This document shows positions 5,698 through 52,397 of a stretch of 64,000 nucleotides of DNA, piece by piece (position 1 is the first letter of the stretch; each line of letters starts with the position of its first letter). The translations under genes were made by a program, and so were the position numbers. Source of the DNA: Candidatus Woesearchaeota archaeon (GTDB taxonomy: Archaea > Nanobdellota > Nanobdellia > Woesearchaeales > ARS49); NCBI GenBank assembly GCA_037445145.1, contig JBBILB010000003.1, forward strand, positions 976-64,975. The letters are read 5' to 3'. Under the pieces are notes generated by a model that searched no databases, was not told the DNA's origin, and saw only the letters and a list, made by a program, of their open reading frames with translations.

Positions 5698-5788
5698 GGG
5701 CCCGTAGCTCAACGGTAGAGCACCTGCCTTGCAAAGATGATGTCTTCAAGAGCGCGGGAGGCTTCGGGTTCAAATCCCGACGGGTCCA
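5698..5788 (+). tRNA. tRNA-Ala (anticodon UGC) with 19-nt intron (5734-5752), in the rRNA spacer
   Basis: Acceptor gggcccg/cgggtcc with the G3:U70 Ala identity pair. Anticodon loop ct-TGC-a. BHB: bulge CA|A, helix cuug/caag, bulge AG|C. Confidence 0.85.
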
Positions 5789-5818: not shown

Positions 5819-5863
5819 CTTGAAAATCCCAGACGACCAACGTTAGTCGGGATTTTCATTGTC
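5819..5863 (+). repeat. Conserved hairpin element, copy B (after tRNA-Ala)
   Basis: cttgaaaatcccagac - 11-nt loop - gtcgggattttcattgtc. Arms are identical to copy A at 2213-2256. Confidence 0.8.
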
Positions 5864-6035
5864 TACAAGTCCATTAAACAAAAATCACATTCATCATTTC
5901 ATTCGATGAACGCAAATCGCAATTCCAAACAATTGCGGTTGAAGGGCAATAGGCTGTAGGAGTATGCTTGAGTGCATACGACCAGTTTACCACACCTACT
6001 ACATGCTAATGAAGCCGTGCAAAGATTGAGATCAT

Positions 6036-12261: not shown

Positions 12262-12485
12262 AAACATCAGAATCTGCACGAGACAGGCGTTCCTGCGCTT
12301 TCTCATGGTGCGAAAAATTGCGCACGGCTTTTGGCAAGCCAGCGCGGCTCAAATCGGATTGTGTACGGATTGAGCTTGCAATCATTCGCATCTTGTCGGG
12401 ATGTAAGCATAACTGGTTTATGAAGGTACTTTGACTTTTCAGCATTTGTGAGCTTTGGCTTTACGAAAGGTTTATATATCAATAA

Positions 12486-12504: not shown

Positions 12505-13080
12505 ATGGATAACAAGCTGAAGGTCATCAATTTCCTGGGAAAAAACGCTGAAACAGCCTTCACAATGCACGAGCTTAGCAAGCAGACAAAGATACCTTAC
12601 GCCACGTTTTACAGAACAATCAAAACAATGACTGACCTGATCGCTCTGACCAAAGCAGGAAAAGCCACCCTTGTCCAGCTTAACCAACAGAATCCTCTAA
12701 CAAAGCATTATCTCATCATATCTTCAAAAGAAGAAAAAGACGATTACGTCAAAAGACAGCCCATCGTCAAGAAAATTACTGGCGAATTGCCGCCTGGAAA
12801 ATACGCCGTGATATTGTTTGGCAGTTATGCCAAAGGCACGCAAACAGCCAAAAGCGACGTCGATATTCTCGTTATTAATGAAAAGGGAGAGCGAATACCA
12901 GATTTTTCCCGCTACGAAACAATCTTCAAGATGAGAATAAACCCAATCTATATCACGCCTGAAGAATTCACTGCAATGCTTAAGGAAAGTGAAGAGAATG
13001 TTGGAAAGCAAGCATTAAAAAACCACGTCATCCTGTACAACCCAGAACTGTTTTGGAACCTCGTCTATGGAATTCAATAA
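12505..13080 (+). CDS. Winged-helix + minimal nucleotidyltransferase (MNT) protein, antitoxin-like
   Basis: N-terminal wHTH. NTase motif ILFGSYAKGTQTAKSDVDILVI (GS-x9-11-DxD). It overlaps the HEPN gene by 14 nt. Confidence 0.8.
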   Translation: MDNKLKVINFLGKNAETAFTMHELSKQTKIPYATFYRTIKTMTDLIALTKAGKATLVQLNQQNPLTKHYLIISSKEEKDDYVKRQPIVKKITGELPPGKYAVILFGSYAKGTQTAKSDVDILVINEKGERIPDFSRYETIFKMRINPIYITPEEFTAMLKESEENVGKQALKNHVILYNPELFWNLVYGIQ

Positions 13081-25354: not shown

Positions 25355-26332
25355 TCATTCAATTGACTCTCGCGGACGACGCCTAGCAGGAGGGGCTGCC
25401 GCGGGCTGAACACGCTGAGCAGCAGGAGCAACCTGAGCAGCGTCTGCAGGAGCAGCAGCACATGCATCAGAAGCAGGCTGTGCAGCAGGAGGAGCAGCAG
25501 CACATGCATCAGAAGCAGGCTGTGCAGCAGGTCTTTGCCTGGGAGGACGGGCAACAGAAGCAGCCTGGGCATCCGGAGAATGCTGCATGGCAGCATTAGC
25601 AAGAGCATCCTGTGCAGTTTCTGCAGGAGTGACAGGAGCAGGAGCAACAGGCATGTTCCTTATGAACTCCCTGCACTGCTTCATCATTTCCCTTATTTCC
25701 TTTGTTTTTGTGCAATACCCAAATTCCTCAAGAGCCTCGCTGAACTGTCCATTGTTGAAATACAGCCCGCCAATGCATGCATGAATTGCCTTCTTCCTTT
25801 TCTCGCTTGGCTCAACAGCAAGGGCTTTTTTGTAAAGCACAAGCGCCTTATCCATATTCTTATAATACCACTCAAAAGCAGAATTGCACAGTCCTACAGA
25901 ACGTTCTGATGAGCGCAGAATGCCGTAATTTTCTCTCCTCAACTGCCTGTTTTCCTTGTTCAGCCTGCTTATCTCCTGCCTGAGCCCTTTGACGTGCAGT
26001 GAAGTAAGGTTTTGGCTGAGCCTTTCCAGAACGCAGTATTTCTCCGGCTGTTTCTTCTTGAAGTCTGTCCTGCCAACATGGGCGGCATAAACATCAATCA
26101 TCCTTGCTGCATAAGCGCGCACGCTGCCGGAAAGCTCATAAGCAACGTCGCCAAGAGTGCTGACAAGATAATCGATGCGGTTGCTGGTTGTCCTTGGCTC
26201 AATTTTGCCAACAATCGCTTCTTTTATCAAGTCAAGTGCGTACTGCCTTGACTCGCTCATTTTTTCATAAGCTTCCTTGAAATCAAGGGAATTCCAAATC
26301 TCGGCAATTTTCCGCTCAAGCCTTGATGTCAT
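25355..26332 (-). CDS. TPR-like protein with Ala/Pro-rich repeat tail, uncharacterised
   Basis: Helical N-terminal half and TPR-like ALVLYKKALAVEPSEKRKKAIHACIGGLYFNNGQFSEALEEF. The C-terminus contains a 14-aa tandem AAQPASDACAAAPP. Confidence 0.65.
   Translation of the reverse strand: MTSRLERKIAEIWNSLDFKEAYEKMSESRQYALDLIKEAIVGKIEPRTTSNRIDYLVSTLGDVAYELSGSVRAYAARMIDVYAAHVGRTDFKKKQPEKYCVLERLSQNLTSLHVKGLRQEISRLNKENRQLRRENYGILRSSERSVGLCNSAFEWYYKNMDKALVLYKKALAVEPSEKRKKAIHACIGGLYFNNGQFSEALEEFGYCTKTKEIREMMKQCREFIRNMPVAPAPVTPAETAQDALANAAMQHSPDAQAASVARPPRQRPAAQPASDACAAAPPAAQPASDACAAAPADAAQVAPAAQRVQPAAAPPARRRPRESIE
25451..25531. repeat. 42-bp-period tandem duplication inside the CDS
   Basis: The 39-nt unit agcagcagcacatgcatcagaagcaggctgtgcagcagg occurs at 25451-25489 and 25493-25531. 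Confidence 0.85.
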
Positions 26333-30028: not shown

Positions 30029-30260
30029 TTTTTCGCTTTTTCTTTATTTTTTTAACTTATTTTGTTAGTCTCACTTTCGTTCTCTTACCCTGTCACCTCT
30101 TTATGTTTTATCAGACAATTCCAATAGTGCCTAAGCACTTTTTGGTTCCTGAGTCGGGTTTTTTTTGGCAAATCCCAGCACAACACTCTTGAAAACCAGC
30201 TGGGAGTTAGGCGCTTCCTGTTGACTTCTGTTTCCTATGTAACTCTCACTTTTGTTTAGC

Positions 30261-30380
30261 AATGGTTTTTATTTTTAATATTTAGAGAAATATAGACAAA
30301 AATATGCTCTTAGTAATACTGTTTCTAAACTATTTTTTATTAAAGATATTTTTAAAAAGAATATTTTTTAAAACAACTTT
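30261..30380. other. Extreme AT-rich block (DUE-like)
   Basis: By my count, 18 G/C in 120 nt. It is flanked by CTCACTTT boxes on the left (30070, 30245) and an inverted AAAGTGAG box on the right (30722). Confidence 0.6.
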
Positions 30381-30970
30381 CCTGATTTCTAGTTTATGCT
30401 ACAACTGTCACCCAAGGTAAGTAAAATTTTGGTTTTCCGTCGGTAAAACAGCTAAAACCCGCAACCGATTTAAAATGAATTTTTTGCAAAAACCTTTTTT
30501 TGGCTAAATCAGGGTTTTTTGGGCTTTCAGAAGATACTCAAATTTGTCAGGGAAAAAGCCAGAATTACTCATAGTTGGGTCTCGGACTGGGTGTTTTGGC
30601 ATATAACCAAGGGTATGAGCCAAGAAGCCCTTGACCTTGTTTGTTGGGAAAATACCAAAAAAGCAGGCATTTTACCGACGCTGACTGTATTTTTGCTGAA
30701 ACCTTGATTTTTGCGCACACCAAAGTGAGGATGGTTTGTGTTTTTAGTCGGGATTTTTAGCGAATTCTGACGCTGATGGTTGAAAAATGCTTTAAAAAGC
30801 CATACTTTAAGACGTTTTCGTAAAAAAGTCTTTCCTAAAGCGGTTTAAACGAAAAAACAGCCAAATTCTGGTATTTCTACGACAATTTTCAATAATCCCT
30901 GTCGGTTTTTCACTGGACACTGGTCGGGATTACGCAAGGCTTTTTAAGGAGTAGTGCTCAACACTTGAAA

Positions 30971-31498
30971 ATGAAAATCCAACTCGAGCATTCTGAATTG
31001 CCAGAACAAGCAGTTACAGAGGATATTGCCAAAACAATCCTTGCAAGGTTCGGGCTTTTGCCCAGGAAAAAAGACGGCAATGCACAAATGCACAAGCTCC
31101 TTCTCGAGCTTTTAGAACGGAAAAAGGCTGCAAACAGGGAGAAAAAGCCAGAAGCAGCAGTCATGCCTGTCGAGGACATGGGCCTTTTTGCAGGCATAAA
31201 AAGGCAGACCATGTACGAATACTTGCACCGCTGGCTTGACCTGAATATCCTCAAGAAAACCAGCTTTGTGAGCAATGGGAAAGTCGTGATTGGCTATGAG
31301 CTGAACGGCACAAACCTGGAAGGGGCTTTCAGAAAGGCAGAAGCGACGATAAAAACACACCTTGACTACTCCTTCAAACTCATTGAAAAATTGCAAAACG
31401 AAATAAAAAAGGAGAAGCTCAGGACAGGGGCTTCTGAACTGCCTGAGAATCCTGAGGCGCCTGCATCCAGTGAGACAAAAGAGAATTCAGGCCAATAA
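30971..31498 (+). CDS. Small winged-helix protein, uncharacterised (175 aa)
   Basis: ATG at 30971 with TATA ctttttaagg about 28 nt upstream. HTH-like GLFAGIKRQTMYEYLHRWLDLNILKK plus a wing (VVIGYELNG). Helical tail. Its 3-prime end overlaps the convergent gene by 80 nt. Confidence 0.55.
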   Translation: MKIQLEHSELPEQAVTEDIAKTILARFGLLPRKKDGNAQMHKLLLELLERKKAANREKKPEAAVMPVEDMGLFAGIKRQTMYEYLHRWLDLNILKKTSFVSNGKVVIGYELNGTNLEGAFRKAEATIKTHLDYSFKLIEKLQNEIKKEKLRTGASELPENPEAPASSETKENSGQ

Positions 31499-31988
31499 CG
31501 ACCTCTTTTGCCTGTTTCTGCCTGAATTTGGGCTCTAATTGCACAAAAGCATGTCCACCGTCGTATTTCTTGATTATGGGAACGCCTTTCTCAATGAGGT
31601 TTGTGACAAAGCCTGAAACCAAAGCCTCGCTGGTGCCGAGCTTCCTTGCAAGCTGTTTGTAGCTGACAAAAGGGATGCTCTCTCCGACGATATACAATGC
31701 CTGGAAGACCTCCTGCTCGCGCTTTGTCAGCGGCTGGATTTCAACCTTATGCTCTGCCTTTTTCCCCTCAACAAGAAGGAAAAGCTCCTCTATGCGGGCG
31801 TGCAGCTTGTCAAGCTTTTCCTCGACAGAACGAATGTATTCGTGGTTTGCCTGAATCTCATTCGTGTTCTCGTTAATTGCTGCCCGATGATCGTCAAGCT
31901 CCTCCCTCAAGGCGTCAAAAATTGAATTCATTGCAAGCCGTGCGCCTGCATCGTCACTGTGCACTAACAATGCCTGTTTTCCCTTCAA
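31419..31988 (-). CDS. Coiled-coil + C-terminal winged-helix protein, uncharacterised
   Basis: TTG start at 31988 preceded by aaggggtgg (SD-like); alternative ATG at 31931. LREELDDHRAAINENTNEIQANHEYIRSVEEKLDKLHARIEEL, then LTKREQEVFQALY...YKQLARKLGTSEALVSGFVTNLIEKG. Confidence 0.6.
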   Translation of the reverse strand: MKGKQALLVHSDDAGARLAMNSIFDALREELDDHRAAINENTNEIQANHEYIRSVEEKLDKLHARIEELFLLVEGKKAEHKVEIQPLTKREQEVFQALYIVGESIPFVSYKQLARKLGTSEALVSGFVTNLIEKGVPIIKKYDGGHAFVQLEPKFRQKQAKEVVIGLNSLLSHWMQAPQDSQAVQKPLS

Positions 31989-32074
31989 ACAGTACCACCC
32001 CTTAATGTACCCTTACCGTCGATGACTTTCTCGTCTCGGCCAGCTCCTTTAAAAGCATTTTTGTTCTGGAAACC

Positions 32075-32785
32075 TTATTTTCCAATCGGCTTTTTCAGGT
32101 GGCCTCCGACCATAAGCAGCTTTTCCTTGCCGTCGTGAATCACGCTAATGGCATTTTCTGCCTCAAGCTCCTCAAGTAGCCTGTAAAAGCTGCTCTTGCT
32201 GGCAAGACCCTGCTCCTCGACGAGCATCTCCCTCAGCTGGAGTGCTGAGATCTTGCCGTACTTCGTGATCATGCTCATAATAAGCCCCTTCAGGTATTCC
32301 TTTGAGTTCCTCGTGATGCGCTGGACAATCTTGTCCCTCAATGCCTGTGTTCTCGATACTGCAGGGGGTATGTGAGGCAGTTCTGAAACATCACGCCTTA
32401 CTTGCTGGACAGCAGAAGCTGCCTTCAAATGCTCCAATCTGGTCAATTTGTCCTCTATTTGCCTGACGCGCTCCAAAATGGCATCAAAATCGTAATAGGC
32501 GTCTATTATGCGCTTTATTGTCGCAGAATCTTTTGGCACTGACCTGATCTCTGCCTGCAGGCGCTCTATCATCTGCCTTTGCCTCAGGATTTCCTGCTCG
32601 TAGTCATCAAAGTCATGCTGTTGGGCTTCTATTATCTGTTGCTGCCTTGCTGCCTGCTGTTGGAAAAACTGCACCCACTGATAAAGCGCGGTAGTATCTT
32701 GCTTTACATGAGCAAAGCTCGCCCTGAGCGCCTTGTCCAACCGGTCAACTTTGTCCTCAACCTCTTTTCCGAAAATCCACCCCAT
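32075..32785 (-). CDS. Coiled-coil + C-terminal winged-helix protein, uncharacterised (236 aa)
   Basis: ATG at 32785 with TATA tttttatacc about 25 nt upstream (leaderless). Q-rich coiled coil, then ISALQLREMLVEEQGLASKSSFYRLLEELEAENAISV (wHTH). Confidence 0.6.
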   Translation of the reverse strand: MGWIFGKEVEDKVDRLDKALRASFAHVKQDTTALYQWVQFFQQQAARQQQIIEAQQHDFDDYEQEILRQRQMIERLQAEIRSVPKDSATIKRIIDAYYDFDAILERVRQIEDKLTRLEHLKAASAVQQVRRDVSELPHIPPAVSRTQALRDKIVQRITRNSKEYLKGLIMSMITKYGKISALQLREMLVEEQGLASKSSFYRLLEELEAENAISVIHDGKEKLLMVGGHLKKPIGK

Positions 32786-32854
32786 ACCCAAACAAAAACA
32801 AACAGAGGTATAAAAATTTTTCTAACAGCATCTTTTCAGCTGATTTTTCAGGTT

Positions 32855-33318
32855 TGGGATGGTCCCAGGACCTTCCTGGCACAGTCCCAGGACTCTTTTG
32901 GGAATATCCTGGGAACATTTTGGTTTATTTTATCGACGATAAAACAATATTCCCACATTCCCAATTGGGACTATATGGGAATGAATTGGGAATATCTTAA
33001 GACGGAGATGGGAATATTCTGGGAATGATTGGGAATGAAACAGGACTATCAGAAACTTTTCGGGACGATAAACTGGGACTGGTTGGGAATATCTGGGAAT
33101 GAGTTGGGAATGAGAATGATGTGCTGATTACAGGATAATGCTGAACTCCTGCGAAAAAGACAGCCCTATTTAGGATTGTGAATGAGCGGGAATAAAATGC
33201 TTTGTGGAAAATTCCAGATTATCATTCCCAACAATATGATTGTTTGTAAACAAGAAAGGCATGGAACAGGACGCAAGCTGCATATAATATATAGTGTGAC
33301 AGCAAAGTAATTGGGAAT
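32855..33318. repeat. Array of about 20 TGGGAAT heptamers (iteron-like), 10-11 bp phasing within clusters
   Basis: Exact forward copies start at 32899, 32976, 32987, 33009, 33020, 33030, 33084, 33094, 33105, 33312. Reverse copies (ATTCCCA) start at 32949, 32957, 33224. One-mismatch variants are at 32855, 32910, 32966, 33074, 33187. Confidence 0.9.
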
Positions 33319-33648
33319 GCTTGGATTTGGGGCGTGGCTGGGCAGGACTTGGTTAGGCATGTCAGGCAGAGTTAACAGCAGAAGGCAGGTATGGTGCATT
33401 GATAAGGATTTTCTGGTGCCTAATAACTTACAAAACACATGGTGCCTAGGAGGTTAAAAGTAAGCGTTCAGAACAGGTTAGGAAAGATTAAGAAAGGACA
33501 ACCTTGTGAGTGAAAAGTGAGAGTTCAATAAAAGTTTTAGTATATTAGGCACTATTAAAGAATGGTGATTTTAAGTCAAAAGTGAGCAAAAACCAGCATC
33601 AAAAGGGTTAAATATACGGCGTTTATTCATAAAAAGTGAGTAGAACAC

Positions 33649-34353
33649 ATGATGGATCCAAACAAATATCCTTGGTTTTATGCACCAGAACTGCCAAAAA
33701 GTGGCGAAATCAGCCTGGATGCTGAAGAATTAAGGCACATAAAGGTCCAAAGGATAAAGCCAGAAGACAAAGTGAGCCTGTTCAATGGTAAAGGCACTGT
33801 GGCCATTTGCACAATCACAAGCGAAGGCAAAGCAAGAATAATCGAGGTTCATGAAGTCCCAAAAAGCACGTTTTCGCTGTTTATAGCCGTTGGCGTACCA
33901 AAAGGAGAGCGTGCTGACTGGATGCTACAAAAACTCGGCGAACTCGGCGCCTCGTCAATAATACCCTTACAAACAGAGTGTTCTGTGGTGCTTCCAAGAA
34001 AAACAAAACAGGAGCGCTGGCAAAGAATCCTGACAGAAGCATGCAAGCAGAGCAAGCAGGCATGGATTCCAGAGCTAAAGCCCCTGTCGACGATAGAAGA
34101 GGCATTGAAGCAAGAGGCAGAGCTTAAAGTCCTTCTTGACCAAACAGGAAAGAATACCACTGAACTTCTGCAGGAAAAGCCCAAATCAGTGCTTGCATTT
34201 ATAGGGCCAGAAGGTGGCTTCACACAAGACGAGAAAAAGCATCTTCTGGCATCAGGATGCAGGCTTGTGTCCCTTTGCAAACAAACACTCAGGGTAGAAA
34301 CAGCAGCAATAGCAATGGCGGTTGTGATAAATATTCTCGGAAAAAACGAATAA
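33649..34353 (+). CDS. rsmE: 16S rRNA (uracil-N3) methyltransferase RsmE-like (SPOUT)
   Basis: N-terminal PUA-like (HIKVQRIKPEDKVSLFNGKG). C-terminal knot IGPEGGFTQDE...LSLCKQTLRVETAAIAMAV. Confidence 0.8.
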   Translation: MMDPNKYPWFYAPELPKSGEISLDAEELRHIKVQRIKPEDKVSLFNGKGTVAICTITSEGKARIIEVHEVPKSTFSLFIAVGVPKGERADWMLQKLGELGASSIIPLQTECSVVLPRKTKQERWQRILTEACKQSKQAWIPELKPLSTIEEALKQEAELKVLLDQTGKNTTELLQEKPKSVLAFIGPEGGFTQDEKKHLLASGCRLVSLCKQTLRVETAAIAMAVVINILGKNE

Positions 34354-35138: not shown

Positions 35139-35195
35139 GACAATTTCTCCACCCAAAATCTTTAAATAGTGCCTAAGGATTTCTTGCGGGTTACG

Positions 35196-35717
35196 ATGGG
35201 GTTTGTAAGAATTAAAAAGATAAAAGGAAGCGAATATGGCTATCTTGTAGAAAATACCTGGACTGCAAAAGGCTCAAGGCAGAAAGTCAAGGCATACCTT
35301 GGCAAAATCATAAAGCCCGTCAAAGAAAGTGAGCTGCCTGCTCCTGAACTGAAAAAGCTTTCTTACCCGGATGCAGTAAAGGCAATAGCAAAATGGACCC
35401 TTCTCCAGCACGGCTTTCAGGAAGGCTCTGAGAGCATGCTGATAAGCGGAACAGTGCTTGCAGACCTTGGAGAGCTCAAAGTCATCAACAAGACAAGCCC
35501 TGCAGTAATCAAGATGCACGAAGGATTCCTCTGCACGCACACATTGCAGCAGGCAATAGGGTTTATTCCATCAGGCAATACGGAGGAAATAATTGGCAAG
35601 GAGCTGGCGAATGTGCTTCTTGAGGCAGGGCTTTCAGTCCCGCACGAGATCTTTGTCCAGCTTTTTGAGAAAGTCCATAACGCTTATAAACCGAACACTA
35701 ATGAGGACACGCAATGA
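35196..35717 (+). CDS. Conserved hypothetical protein
   Basis: ATG at 35196 (the track GTG at 35169 is rejected). MGFVRIKKIKGSEYGYLVENTWTAKGSRQKVKAYLGK N-terminal box. TATA tttaaata at 35161. Confidence 0.55.
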   Translation: MGFVRIKKIKGSEYGYLVENTWTAKGSRQKVKAYLGKIIKPVKESELPAPELKKLSYPDAVKAIAKWTLLQHGFQEGSESMLISGTVLADLGELKVINKTSPAVIKMHEGFLCTHTLQQAIGFIPSGNTEEIIGKELANVLLEAGLSVPHEIFVQLFEKVHNAYKPNTNEDTQ

Positions 35718-51938: not shown

Positions 51939-52397
51939 GCAGAATTCTATGAATTTTGGCTCGCAAATCCTTGCACTCCTCAAAGAGCACGCTGTTGAGC
52001 ACGCGCTTGGGTCAATTATCTGGCCGCAGGCAGACTTGCAGTCAGCCCCGCTTGGCTTTGAGCAGGCATAAGTTGCAGAAGTCTTGCAGGATGATTCGCA
52101 TTTCTCAATGCATTCAGCAACAGGGTCTTCTGCTGGCCTGTTCTCAGGGATGACAATCACTTGGGGCTCATCCCTTGGAATCACATTTGTCGGAATGTAA
52201 TTGAGGGGGGTTTCTGACGGCTGCGAGGGGGCAGGCTCTGGCTCTGGGACGGGCTCGCTCGTGACAACAACCTCCTTCGGTCCTTCGGGAGGGGCCTGCA
52301 CGATTACTGCCCCTGAAGGAGATTTCTGGCAGGCAGAGAGCAATGCCAAGACAAGGATGCACGCAATAATGCTAATGCATAAAGCCCGCAATGACAT
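51909..52397 (-). CDS. Putative lipoprotein, Pro-rich linker + Cys-rich domain
   Basis: Start moved to MSLRALCISIIACILVLALLSAC-QK (lipobox-like). C-terminal 90 aa has 14 Cys. Confidence 0.55.
   Translation of the reverse strand: MSLRALCISIIACILVLALLSACQKSPSGAVIVQAPPEGPKEVVVTSEPVPEPEPAPSQPSETPLNYIPTNVIPRDEPQVIVIPENRPAEDPVAECIEKCESSCKTSATYACSKPSGADCKSACGQIIDPSACSTACSLRSARICEPKFIEFCSAQCVGKCH

Follow-up and report, generated by a model that had tools for sequence, protein, structure and literature searches.

We describe a 3.6-kb island in the chromosome of a Candidatus Woesearchaeota archaeon (assembly GCA_037445145.1, contig JBBILB010000003.1) that encodes three small proteins, here called pA, pB, and pC, between two arms of noncoding DNA carrying short, ordered motifs. 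The island occupies positions 30,029 to 33,648 of the 64,000-nucleotide stretch that was analyzed (the window, to which all coordinates refer). Judged from sequence comparison, the locus is deeply conserved, uncharacterized, vertically inherited, and specific to Woesearchaeota. What could such an island do? An initial annotation had proposed a noncanonical origin or partition locus or, alternatively, the relic of an integrated element. The partition or centromere option is the most attractive of these; we favor it tentatively, as an unproven reading, and infer that the island may be a self-regulated, centromere-like nucleoprotein assembly site bound by its own proteins. A protein-DNA platform that organizes or anchors the chromosome is in any case more likely than a replication origin. 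Such a chromosome-organizing or centromere-like role is favored by how many sites there are, by their phasing and spread, by the long coiled coils of the proteins, by the cost of 1.8 kb of conserved noncoding DNA in compact genomes, and by the linkage to a XerA-like recombinase in part of the relatives.

The three genes have the coordinates and strands given in the initial annotation, and they lie between two noncoding arms of about 0.9 kb each (30029 to 30970 and 32786 to 33648). The parts of the island are as follows.

30029 to 30261: distal left arm, with two CTCACTTT boxes, the GTGCCTAA/TTAGGCGC pair, GTCGGG-T8, and terminator-like sites
30070 to 30077 and 30245 to 30252: left-arm boxes, CTCACTTT
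30127 to 30134: GTGCCTAA, paired with TTAGGCGC about 75 nt away
30152 to 30169: GTCGGG-T8 stretch of the distal left arm
30262 to 30375: AT-rich block, 14.9% GC versus 47.4% for the window, between oppositely oriented AAAGTGAG boxes
30376 to 30970, plus strand: conserved region upstream of pA
30439, 30747, 30901, and 30923: co-oriented GTCGG(G)AT sites, with CCGAC at 30675
30722 to 30729: left-arm box, AAAGTGAG
about 30943: pA promoter, TTTTTAAGG
30971 to 31498, plus strand: pA, 175 amino acids (aa), with a winged helix (residues 67 to 111), a long C-terminal helix (116 to 154), and a disordered tail
31419 to 31988, minus strand: pB, 189 aa, with the conserved N-terminal sequence EELDDHxxAINENTNEI, a coiled coil, and a C-terminal helix-turn-helix (HTH) of LuxR/HTH_24 type
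32075 to 32785, minus strand: pC, 236 aa, with the N-terminal aromatic cluster MGWIFGK, then helices, and a C-terminal winged helix after a disordered linker
32786 to 32830, minus strand: pC promoter with TFB recognition element (BRE) and TATA, GAAAAATTTTTATACC on the pC strand, kept in all aligned relatives
32883 to 33318: TGGGA(A/C)T array, with 16 exact and further degenerate copies grouped in blocks of 3 to 4
33283 to 33300: conserved, TATA-like AT palindrome halfway along the right arm, ACTATATATTATATG on the pC strand
33416 to 33776, plus strand: outer right arm, with the GTGCCTA elements and four AAAGTGAG boxes
33416, 33442, and 33545 (inverted): GTGCCTA elements of the right arm
33514, 33579, 33633, and 33769 (the last within rsmE): right-arm AAAGTGAG boxes, co-oriented and directed away from pC

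Both arms carry just short or overlapping mechanical open reading frames (ORFs), as had been claimed, and apart from the rRNA operon they are the longest ORF-free stretches of the window. Across six relatives, substitutions in the two arms had no codon periodicity (p = 0.71 and 0.17), and those in pA, pB, and pC showed strong 3-periodicity favoring third codon positions (p < 1e-15). The genes are thus real, and the arms are genuine noncoding DNA. Purifying selection on all three genes is strong. The 80-nt overlap between the convergent genes pA and pB is present and recurs in relatives (80 nt in locus L003 and 53 nt in locus L001), and so is the 13-nt inverted pair that brackets the genes (30241 to 30253 and 33513 to 33525). 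By contrast, a direct repeat reported at the outer edges (29667 and 33606) is not meaningful: its left copy crosses the stop codon of the PAC2 gene, and its right copy is a conserved AT-rich stretch, likely a TATA element, directly upstream of rsmE. Hairpin/T-run sites resembling terminators follow a 94-aa gene in the distal left arm, and GC content is unremarkable across the island except in the AT-rich block. The spacing of 0 to 150 bp reported for genes elsewhere in the window was overstated, as other gaps reach about 430 nt. Next in length after the arms and the rRNA region is a 433-nt ORF-free gap at 51939 to 52371, which gave no Rfam match at the gathering threshold.

The window is archaeal chromosomal DNA, with a 16S-tRNA-23S operon, tRNAs, and genes for ribosomal proteins and translation factors, and its nearest protein relatives come from metagenome-assembled genomes of Candidatus Woesearchaeota and Nanoarchaeia. 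GTDB species representatives were scanned, and 180 of them encode pC; 80 of these loci were fetched. A homology search with pC gave 173 homologues, all of them from Woesearchaeota or Nanoarchaeota. The island and its repeats are conserved in sister genomes, and the same layout recurs in the fetched loci: rsmE, an arm, pC followed by pB and, where present, facing pA, a second arm, and PAC2. On contigs of 227 to 505 kb, the genes preceding the pC side run Spt4, S24e, S27, ..., L10, L1, ..., UppS, RpoL, rsmE. The gaps in relatives measure about 800 to 850 nt between rsmE and pC and about 900 nt between pA and PAC2. pB directly follows pC in 80 of 83 loci, that is, in every locus long enough to show the pair, and pA is adjacent in about half of the loci. 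Where pA is missing, 3 to 5 kb of other genes, including those for a membrane protein and a XerA-like recombinase, separate pB from a module made of an AT-rich block and AAAGTGAG boxes. The XerA-like tyrosine recombinase lies directly downstream of pB in 28 loci of the clade without pA (L041:7992-8807 and 27 others).

The densest motif is the heptamer TGGGA(A/C)T. Sixteen of the 30 TGGGAMT copies in the window fall inside 32883 to 33318 (436 bp), where about 0.1 would be expected for a stretch of that size. Of the roughly 20 phased TGGGAAT heptamers claimed initially, the phasing of 10 to 11 bp stands; the exact TGGGAMT copies in the array number 16, and the rest are degenerate. The spacings run, in order, 10, 11, 22, 11, 10, 44, 10, 10, and 11, and the window heptamers mostly read TCCCA on the pC sense strand. 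The array is kept in at least 77 loci, and the 900 nt upstream of pC hold 3 to 29 copies of TGGGA in nearly every locus, against a background of 0.4 to 2.1 per kb. When spacings were pooled across loci, the prevailing values were 11 (274 cases), 10 (96), 22 (55), 33 (34), 44 to 45 (31), and 12 (30), and 80% of the heptamers shared one orientation. The spacers themselves are variable, which indicates that helical phasing is selected and that the array does not consist of copied repeat units. Between the array and the pC start codon lie about 45 bp, and the array ends just past the conserved pC TATA/BRE. TATCGTC elements found between heptamer blocks were rejected as a general part of the locus, as they are clade-restricted and absent in 30 of 77 loci.

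A second motif marks the gene for pA. Pooled over the loci, GTCGGGA occurs 62 times in the 600 nt upstream of pA versus 1.1 expected, with no enrichment elsewhere in the loci or where pA is absent, and these copies share an orientation and stand at conserved offsets, spaced by about 104 and 21 to 22 bp. Sites of the form GTCGGGAT are found, within the loci, upstream of pA only; GTCGGGAT/TCCCAGAC are palindromes. The window as a whole contains 11 copies of GTCGGGA versus 2.7 expected, a count reached in 0 of 100 shuffles. Copies outside the island lie at 12395, 13378, 47322, 57514, 59788, and 62006, with one copy 110 nt upstream of a small HTH-like gene (12505 to 13080), and this surplus may point to a wider regulon.

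The third family, the AAAGTGAG boxes, is defined by orientation. All six CTCACTTT boxes of the initial annotation were recovered, with a seventh at 33769 inside rsmE. Their whole-window count is not significant by itself; it is their clustering and conservation that carry weight. In relatives, a co-oriented group of 3 to 7 AAAGTGAG boxes lies beyond the heptamers and is directed away from pC. On the far side of the locus, the boxes of a second group have the opposite orientation, and one or two inverted copies lie across a 100-nt block of 10 to 17% GC. The block between inverted boxes, reported at 15 percent GC in the window, is matched both in composition and in the arrangement kept by relatives. 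In 64 of 83 loci, the lowest-GC window of the locus falls in the arms or at most 300 nt from a box.

Boxes also persist inside coding sequence. In the clade without pA, a methyltransferase gene takes the place of rsmE and holds three to five AAAGTGAG boxes within its coding sequence (L041:4924-5556 and 40 further loci). The 8-mer sits at three fixed codon positions in 26 to 36 of the 41 methyltransferase genes, and it is kept although the encoded residues vary (KSE, ESE, or QSE; KVR or KVS). The majority-codon share at conserved residues of these genes is only 0.58. Retention of the boxes despite residue change and synonymous drift shows selection on the nucleotide motif itself. Two simpler identities for the boxes were rejected. 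They are not tandem promoters, since a TATA-like element lies upstream of just 12 to 23% of them and many are within coding sequence, nor are they Shine-Dalgarno sequences, as by our reading their pairing to the 16S 3' end covers only about 4 nt, and the Shine-Dalgarno sequence of the relatives is GAGGTGA.

Four of the five GTGCCTAR copies in the window are within the arms, in agreement with the initial claim, and the GTGCCTA/TAGGCAC pair and the left-arm boxes are conserved in the alignment and locus maps of the relatives. Half-copies of a tRNA-associated hairpin had also been reported in the island; AGTCGGGATTTT is exact at 30746 and has a one-mismatch copy at 30152. The hairpins themselves are near-identical, perfect palindromes of the form TTGAAAATCCCAGAC-N-AGTCGGGATTTTCATTGTC at 2214 to 2257 and 5821 to 5864, one after tRNA-Gly and the other after the tRNA of the 16S-23S spacer (Gln according to ARAGORN, Ala in the initial annotation). 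Their arms resemble two island motifs, TCCCAGA of the heptamer type and GTCGGGAT of the pA type. They could be extra sites for the island proteins, or RNA-processing or terminator hairpins.

Searches of Pfam, NCBIfam, PDB sequences, PHROGs, and PADLOC placed none of pA, pB, or pC in a family, with weak HTH or coiled-coil noise only for pB and pC, and profile-profile comparison detected no paralogy among the three. Their description as unassignable winged-helix/coiled-coil proteins agrees with structure models for pA and pC and, for pB, with weak profile matches (HTH_24, GerE, and Fe_dep_repress). pA is the best conserved of the three (65 to 90% identity), and a profile search of 1.8 billion representative proteins returned just 55 clusters, which identifies the family as lineage-specific. 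Its AlphaFold2 model has a winged helix and a long C-terminal helix (predicted local distance difference test [pLDDT] score, 86.5). The top Foldseek match was the extended winged helix of TFE-alpha (6xjf; E = 1e-3), with template modeling (TM) scores of 0.35 by query and 0.52 by target. Further fold matches were the Lrs14-like AbfR2 and MarR/ArsR regulators, so that the likeness is generic. Matches to Rep-type profiles (Rep3_N and Phage_rep_O) appeared in distant pA relatives only, at E ≥ 0.03. TFE-alpha/TFIIE-alpha, universal in archaea, joins an extended winged helix to a zinc ribbon. The candidate identity of pA with it was rejected, because the fold match is no better than for MarR/ArsR, there is no PF02002 match, the pA model has no beta-strand element past the wing, and the pA profile finds just the 55 clusters.

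The pC model (AlphaFold2 pLDDT, 79.5) has a 79-residue helix and two more helices, joined by a disordered linker to a C-terminal winged helix, and its coiled coil measures about 120 Å. The recognition helix (SKSSFYR) and wing (GKEK) are invariant at overall identities down to 34%. The N-terminal aromatic cluster, MGW[IL]FGK or MFWKKD, is likewise conserved and could act as an anchor. Winged-helix fold matches for pC were generic (Fur, ArsR, Hop2, and AspA). Checking by Foldseek (pA and pC) and profiles for ordinary metabolic regulators yielded generic winged-helix likeness and no family match. A C-terminal NSLLSxW motif in pB was considered as a PCNA-interaction box and rejected, as the more distant clade does not retain it.

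How might these parts work together? Three lineage-specific winged-helix proteins would be encoded within the DNA that they bind. pC would be a long coiled-coil dimer or oligomer whose C-terminal winged helix binds the phased TGGGA(A/C)T blocks cooperatively on one face of the DNA helix, and the resulting filament-like or wrapped complex would also autoregulate the pC-pB operon. The invariant recognition helix and wing of pC fit the invariant TGGGA core. pA would bind the GTCGGGAT sites that lie, in one common orientation, ahead of its own gene, and the polar AAAGTGAG boxes, in two opposed groups bracketing the locus, would be bound by a third specificity, for which pB is a candidate. The assembled complex would pair, bridge, or anchor the chromosome, with replication starting elsewhere. 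The three proteins had been named as the obvious candidates for binding the repeats, and the co-occurrence of motifs and genes, the position of the arrays at the proteins' own promoters, and the pairing of an invariant pC helix with an invariant core all favor that suggestion.

Several points weigh against a centromere-like role. The pairing of proteins with motifs was drawn from co-occurrence and position alone. The locus has no nucleoside triphosphatase (NTPase) motor (ParA, SegA, ParM, or TubZ) and no P-loop ORF. Foldseek returned generic winged-helix regulators (Fur, ArsR, MarR, TFE-alpha, and Lrs14-like), so the proteins could be ordinary transcription factors. A centromere does not require an AT-rich block between inverted boxes, the classic origin signature that is conserved here. 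In the clade without pA, the heptamers number only 3 to 10. Finally, the XerA linkage may reflect just one or two evolutionary events.

Could the island be a replication origin? It would then be a secondary or atypical one, independent of an adjacent Orc1/Cdc6 gene as in oriC3-WhiP of Sulfolobus, with the AT-rich block as its unwinding element, the AAAGTGAG sequences as its initiator boxes, and a winged-helix protein as the initiator or a cofactor; we consider both this possibility and these assignments unlikely. Known archaeal origins have a DNA unwinding element (DUE) that lies between origin recognition boxes (ORBs), with the initiator genetically linked (PMC5333045). Like the ORB/mini-ORB and DUE origins and oriC3-WhiP of Sulfolobus islandicus, the island has an AT-rich block, inverted boxes, and a linked winged-helix gene (PMC5333045). 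The block is conserved amid divergent boxes, with more boxes on both sides, and a RecJ/DHH-family gene lies about 4.8 kb from the site in 21 loci. Compared, unaligned, with the ORB/mini-ORB consensus, AAAGTGAG appears to have a short CACT core alone in common, and nothing like the heptamer array is known from archaeal origins. Unlike those origins, the island has no linked Orc1/Cdc6. None was found in the window, as reported initially, nor in an additional 10 kb, nor at distances up to 6 kb in 82 loci. In these archaea, Orc1/Cdc6 is reported to belong to the core genes and to be present in a single copy (preprint 10.64898/2026.05.13.725050). The island's own proteins, each with a single winged helix (modeled for pA and pC, putative for pB), have no similarity to Cdt1/WhiP or Orc1 that would mark one of them as a linked initiator.

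Nor does strand asymmetry switch at the site. We computed AT skew for each gene at four-fold degenerate sites and expressed it on the top strand. The skew was positive, irrespective of gene strand, in 21 of 23 genes (91%; mean, +0.23) left of the island and in 30 of 35 genes (86%; mean, +0.17) right of it, as well as in 7 of 8 genes of a further 10 kb (L084:1-10000). Over at least 74 kb, about 88% of genes thus have A > T on the top strand at four-fold sites, with exceptions that include the highly expressed S24e and Rpo7, and the polarity was equally unflipped when 36 related loci were pooled. Skew should flip at a bidirectional origin or terminus, and the absence of a sign reversal argues against either, in a test that is blind to a rarely used or dormant origin and to unidirectional replication and that is silent in the clade without pA, which has no usable strand asymmetry. 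The cumulative GC skew of the window does reach its minimum at 32 to 33 kb. This minimum was rejected as evidence for an origin, because the G-rich heptamers and the minus-strand genes account for it. The origin-like part of the initial proposal, an AT-rich block flanked by inverted boxes, is thus conserved, and the accompanying skew flip and linked Orc1/Cdc6 were not found.

More serious competition for the centromere-like reading, though still somewhat improbable in our estimate, comes from a plain regulatory circuit. The three proteins would be autoregulated winged-helix transcription factors with no structural role in the chromosome, and it is similarly doubtful that the arrays are just outsized operators for their genes and for the outward-facing neighbors (on one side rsmE or the methyltransferase, on the other the gene past the far arm). 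All Foldseek and Pfam likenesses are to transcription regulators or TFE-alpha-type winged helices, every motif family is found at the promoter of a locus gene, and in the window, L003, L001, and L041 the last AAAGTGAG box precedes the start codon of the outward-facing gene by 8 to 15 nt. However, about 20 phased sites and 4 to 7 boxes spread over 600 to 700 bp and into the coding sequence of a neighbor go well beyond usual operators, a 120-Å coiled coil is atypical of a simple repressor, and the boxes are not simply promoters. Some 1.8 kb of conserved noncoding DNA is also costly in genomes that are reported to be about 93% coding (preprint 10.64898/2026.05.13.725050). Quite improbable, to our mind, is that the arms encode one or more unannotated noncoding RNAs with the motifs as RNA elements (hairpins or protein-binding repeats). 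Conserved left-arm blocks, the possible hairpins GTGCCTAA...TTAGGCAC and GTCGGGAAAAT...ATTTTACCGAC, the related perfect hairpin after two tRNA genes, the conserved TATA-like element in the middle of the right arm, and the mostly sense orientation of boxes inside ORFs would suit such RNAs. Yet no Rfam family was found in the arms at gathering thresholds or at E values up to 5, the second halves of the possible hairpins are not maintained by compensatory change across 24 relatives, and left-arm boxes are antisense to the adjacent genes. The many T5-8 runs on both strands read as archaeal terminators, and phasing at 10.9 bp with variable spacers fits the geometry of a DNA helix. Last, we give very little credence to the idea that the locus is an integrated element, decayed or domesticated, whose former terminal repeats are the inverted boxes. 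The inverted box groups do flank a variable center, which holds pA in one clade and the tyrosine recombinase and membrane proteins in the other. Against this, the locus keeps the same chromosomal neighbors across the order, with a fixed position in 80 loci and a Xer-like recombinase adjacent in one clade only; pA, pB, and pC are under purifying selection; the boxes extend into host coding sequence; and GC is normal outside the AT-rich block. No viral relatives of pC or pB were found among IMG/VR viral contigs, and PHROGs and PADLOC gave none, so the suggestion of a relic does not hold.

By analogy, the locus would functionally resemble pSK1 Par, RocS, RacA, ParR-parC, and TubR-tubC while being a member of none. 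RacA, pSK1 Par, and RocS are bacterial factors for segregation or anchoring in which a winged helix is joined to a coiled coil and which bind repeat arrays beside their own gene (PMC11500499). The island would share with pSK1 Par, Streptococcus pneumoniae RocS, and Bacillus subtilis RacA a winged helix joined to an oligomerizing coiled coil and centromere-like repeats, which for pSK1 Par lie next to its own gene, and these cassettes need no dedicated NTPase (PMC11500499). Unlike them, pC has the reverse domain order, with the coiled coil N-terminal and the winged helix C-terminal, and the locus is archaeal, with two such proteins per operon, a third winged-helix gene, and several motif families. 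The hallmark of that group, an N-terminal MerR-type winged helix, a coiled coil, and a DUF536 or C-terminal anchor, was not seen; there was no sequence or profile similarity and no match to PF04394 (DUF536), RocS-like_C, or MerR at E up to 1.

In the type II and III partition systems ParR-parC (R1) and TubR-tubC (pBtoxis/c-st), blocks of short direct repeats, spaced at about one helical turn, directly precede the promoter of the operon for the binding protein or extend into it, and ParR and TubR bind them cooperatively, forming a higher-order filament or ring that also autoregulates. The island likewise has phased repeat blocks directly upstream of the operon for the presumed binding protein, a phased-iteron arrangement overlapping the promoter. 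It differs in lacking an adjacent filament-forming NTPase (ParM or TubZ), as the operon consists of pC and pB only, with no nucleotide-binding motif and no Pfam match, and in being chromosomal and conserved across an order; moreover, ParR has a ribbon-helix-helix fold and the island proteins a winged helix. Helix-phased direct repeats beside a binding-protein gene, here the heptamers at the pC promoter, also recall iteron plasmid origins, but the pA and pC models have one winged helix each instead of the tandem WH1-WH2 of Rep. The RTP-Ter system of B. subtilis offers a small winged-helix protein with a C-terminal dimerizing helix, opposed polar sites nearby, and autoregulation, and RTP was among the weak pA Foldseek matches (1f4k; rank 18; E = 0.01). 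A fork trap would, however, be expected at a skew switch, which is missing here, and the likeness is no better than that to generic MarR/ArsR proteins. SegAB and the pNOB8 AspA-ParB-ParA system likewise place a site-specific archaeal protein on repeats beside its own operon to organize a segregation complex, and AspA was among the weak winged-helix matches of pC (5k5q and 4rs8; E = 0.04 to 0.08). SegB has a ribbon-helix-helix fold, and AspA is not known to have a coiled coil. Unlike these systems, the island has no ParA-type ATPase and no sequence relationship to them; no P-loop ORF lies in or beside the locus, and no ParB or ribbon-helix-helix match was obtained, which sets it apart from ParABS and SegAB alike.

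A more specific form of the centromere-like reading, which we consider less likely than the general one, is that Woesearchaeota have a motorless chromosomal centromere or anchoring site. Filaments of pC on the phased heptamer array, together with pB and pA, might tether sister chromosomes to the membrane or pair them with each other, with the boxes delimiting or loading the complex; the tether, an equally doubtful element, would run through the N-terminal aromatic motif and the 120-Å coiled coil. An origin that is independent of an adjacent Orc1 gene and specified by a new winged-helix initiator is the less likely alternative. Chromosome organization, segregation, and replication are essentially unknown in DPANN archaea, and archaeal chromosome segregation in general is still poorly understood (PMC7617429). 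With 123 complete Woesearchaeales genomes described (preprint 10.64898/2026.05.13.725050), the locus provides an order-wide handle: three uncharacterized protein families, at least three motifs with strict geometry, and copies maintained inside a neighboring gene. If centromere-like, the site would be the first described in DPANN archaea, and one without an NTPase motor; if an origin, it would be the second archaeal example, after oriC3-WhiP, specified without Orc1/Cdc6.

Outside the island, a 167- to 182-aa protein (MPKDFLRV...KGSEYGYLVEN...), encoded in the window at 35169 to 35717, stands beside RpoL and UppS in 69 of 83 loci and had no PHROGs match. Rfam counted five tRNAs in the window and ARAGORN four; several tRNA genes, including those at 2286 to 2386 and 5698 to 5788, are overlong (about 91 to 101 nt), which makes introns probable. 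The ORF at 25355 to 26332 has a Gln/Ala-rich repeat region in which 42 nt are perfectly duplicated in tandem (25448 to 25531; 2.0 copies, 100% match).

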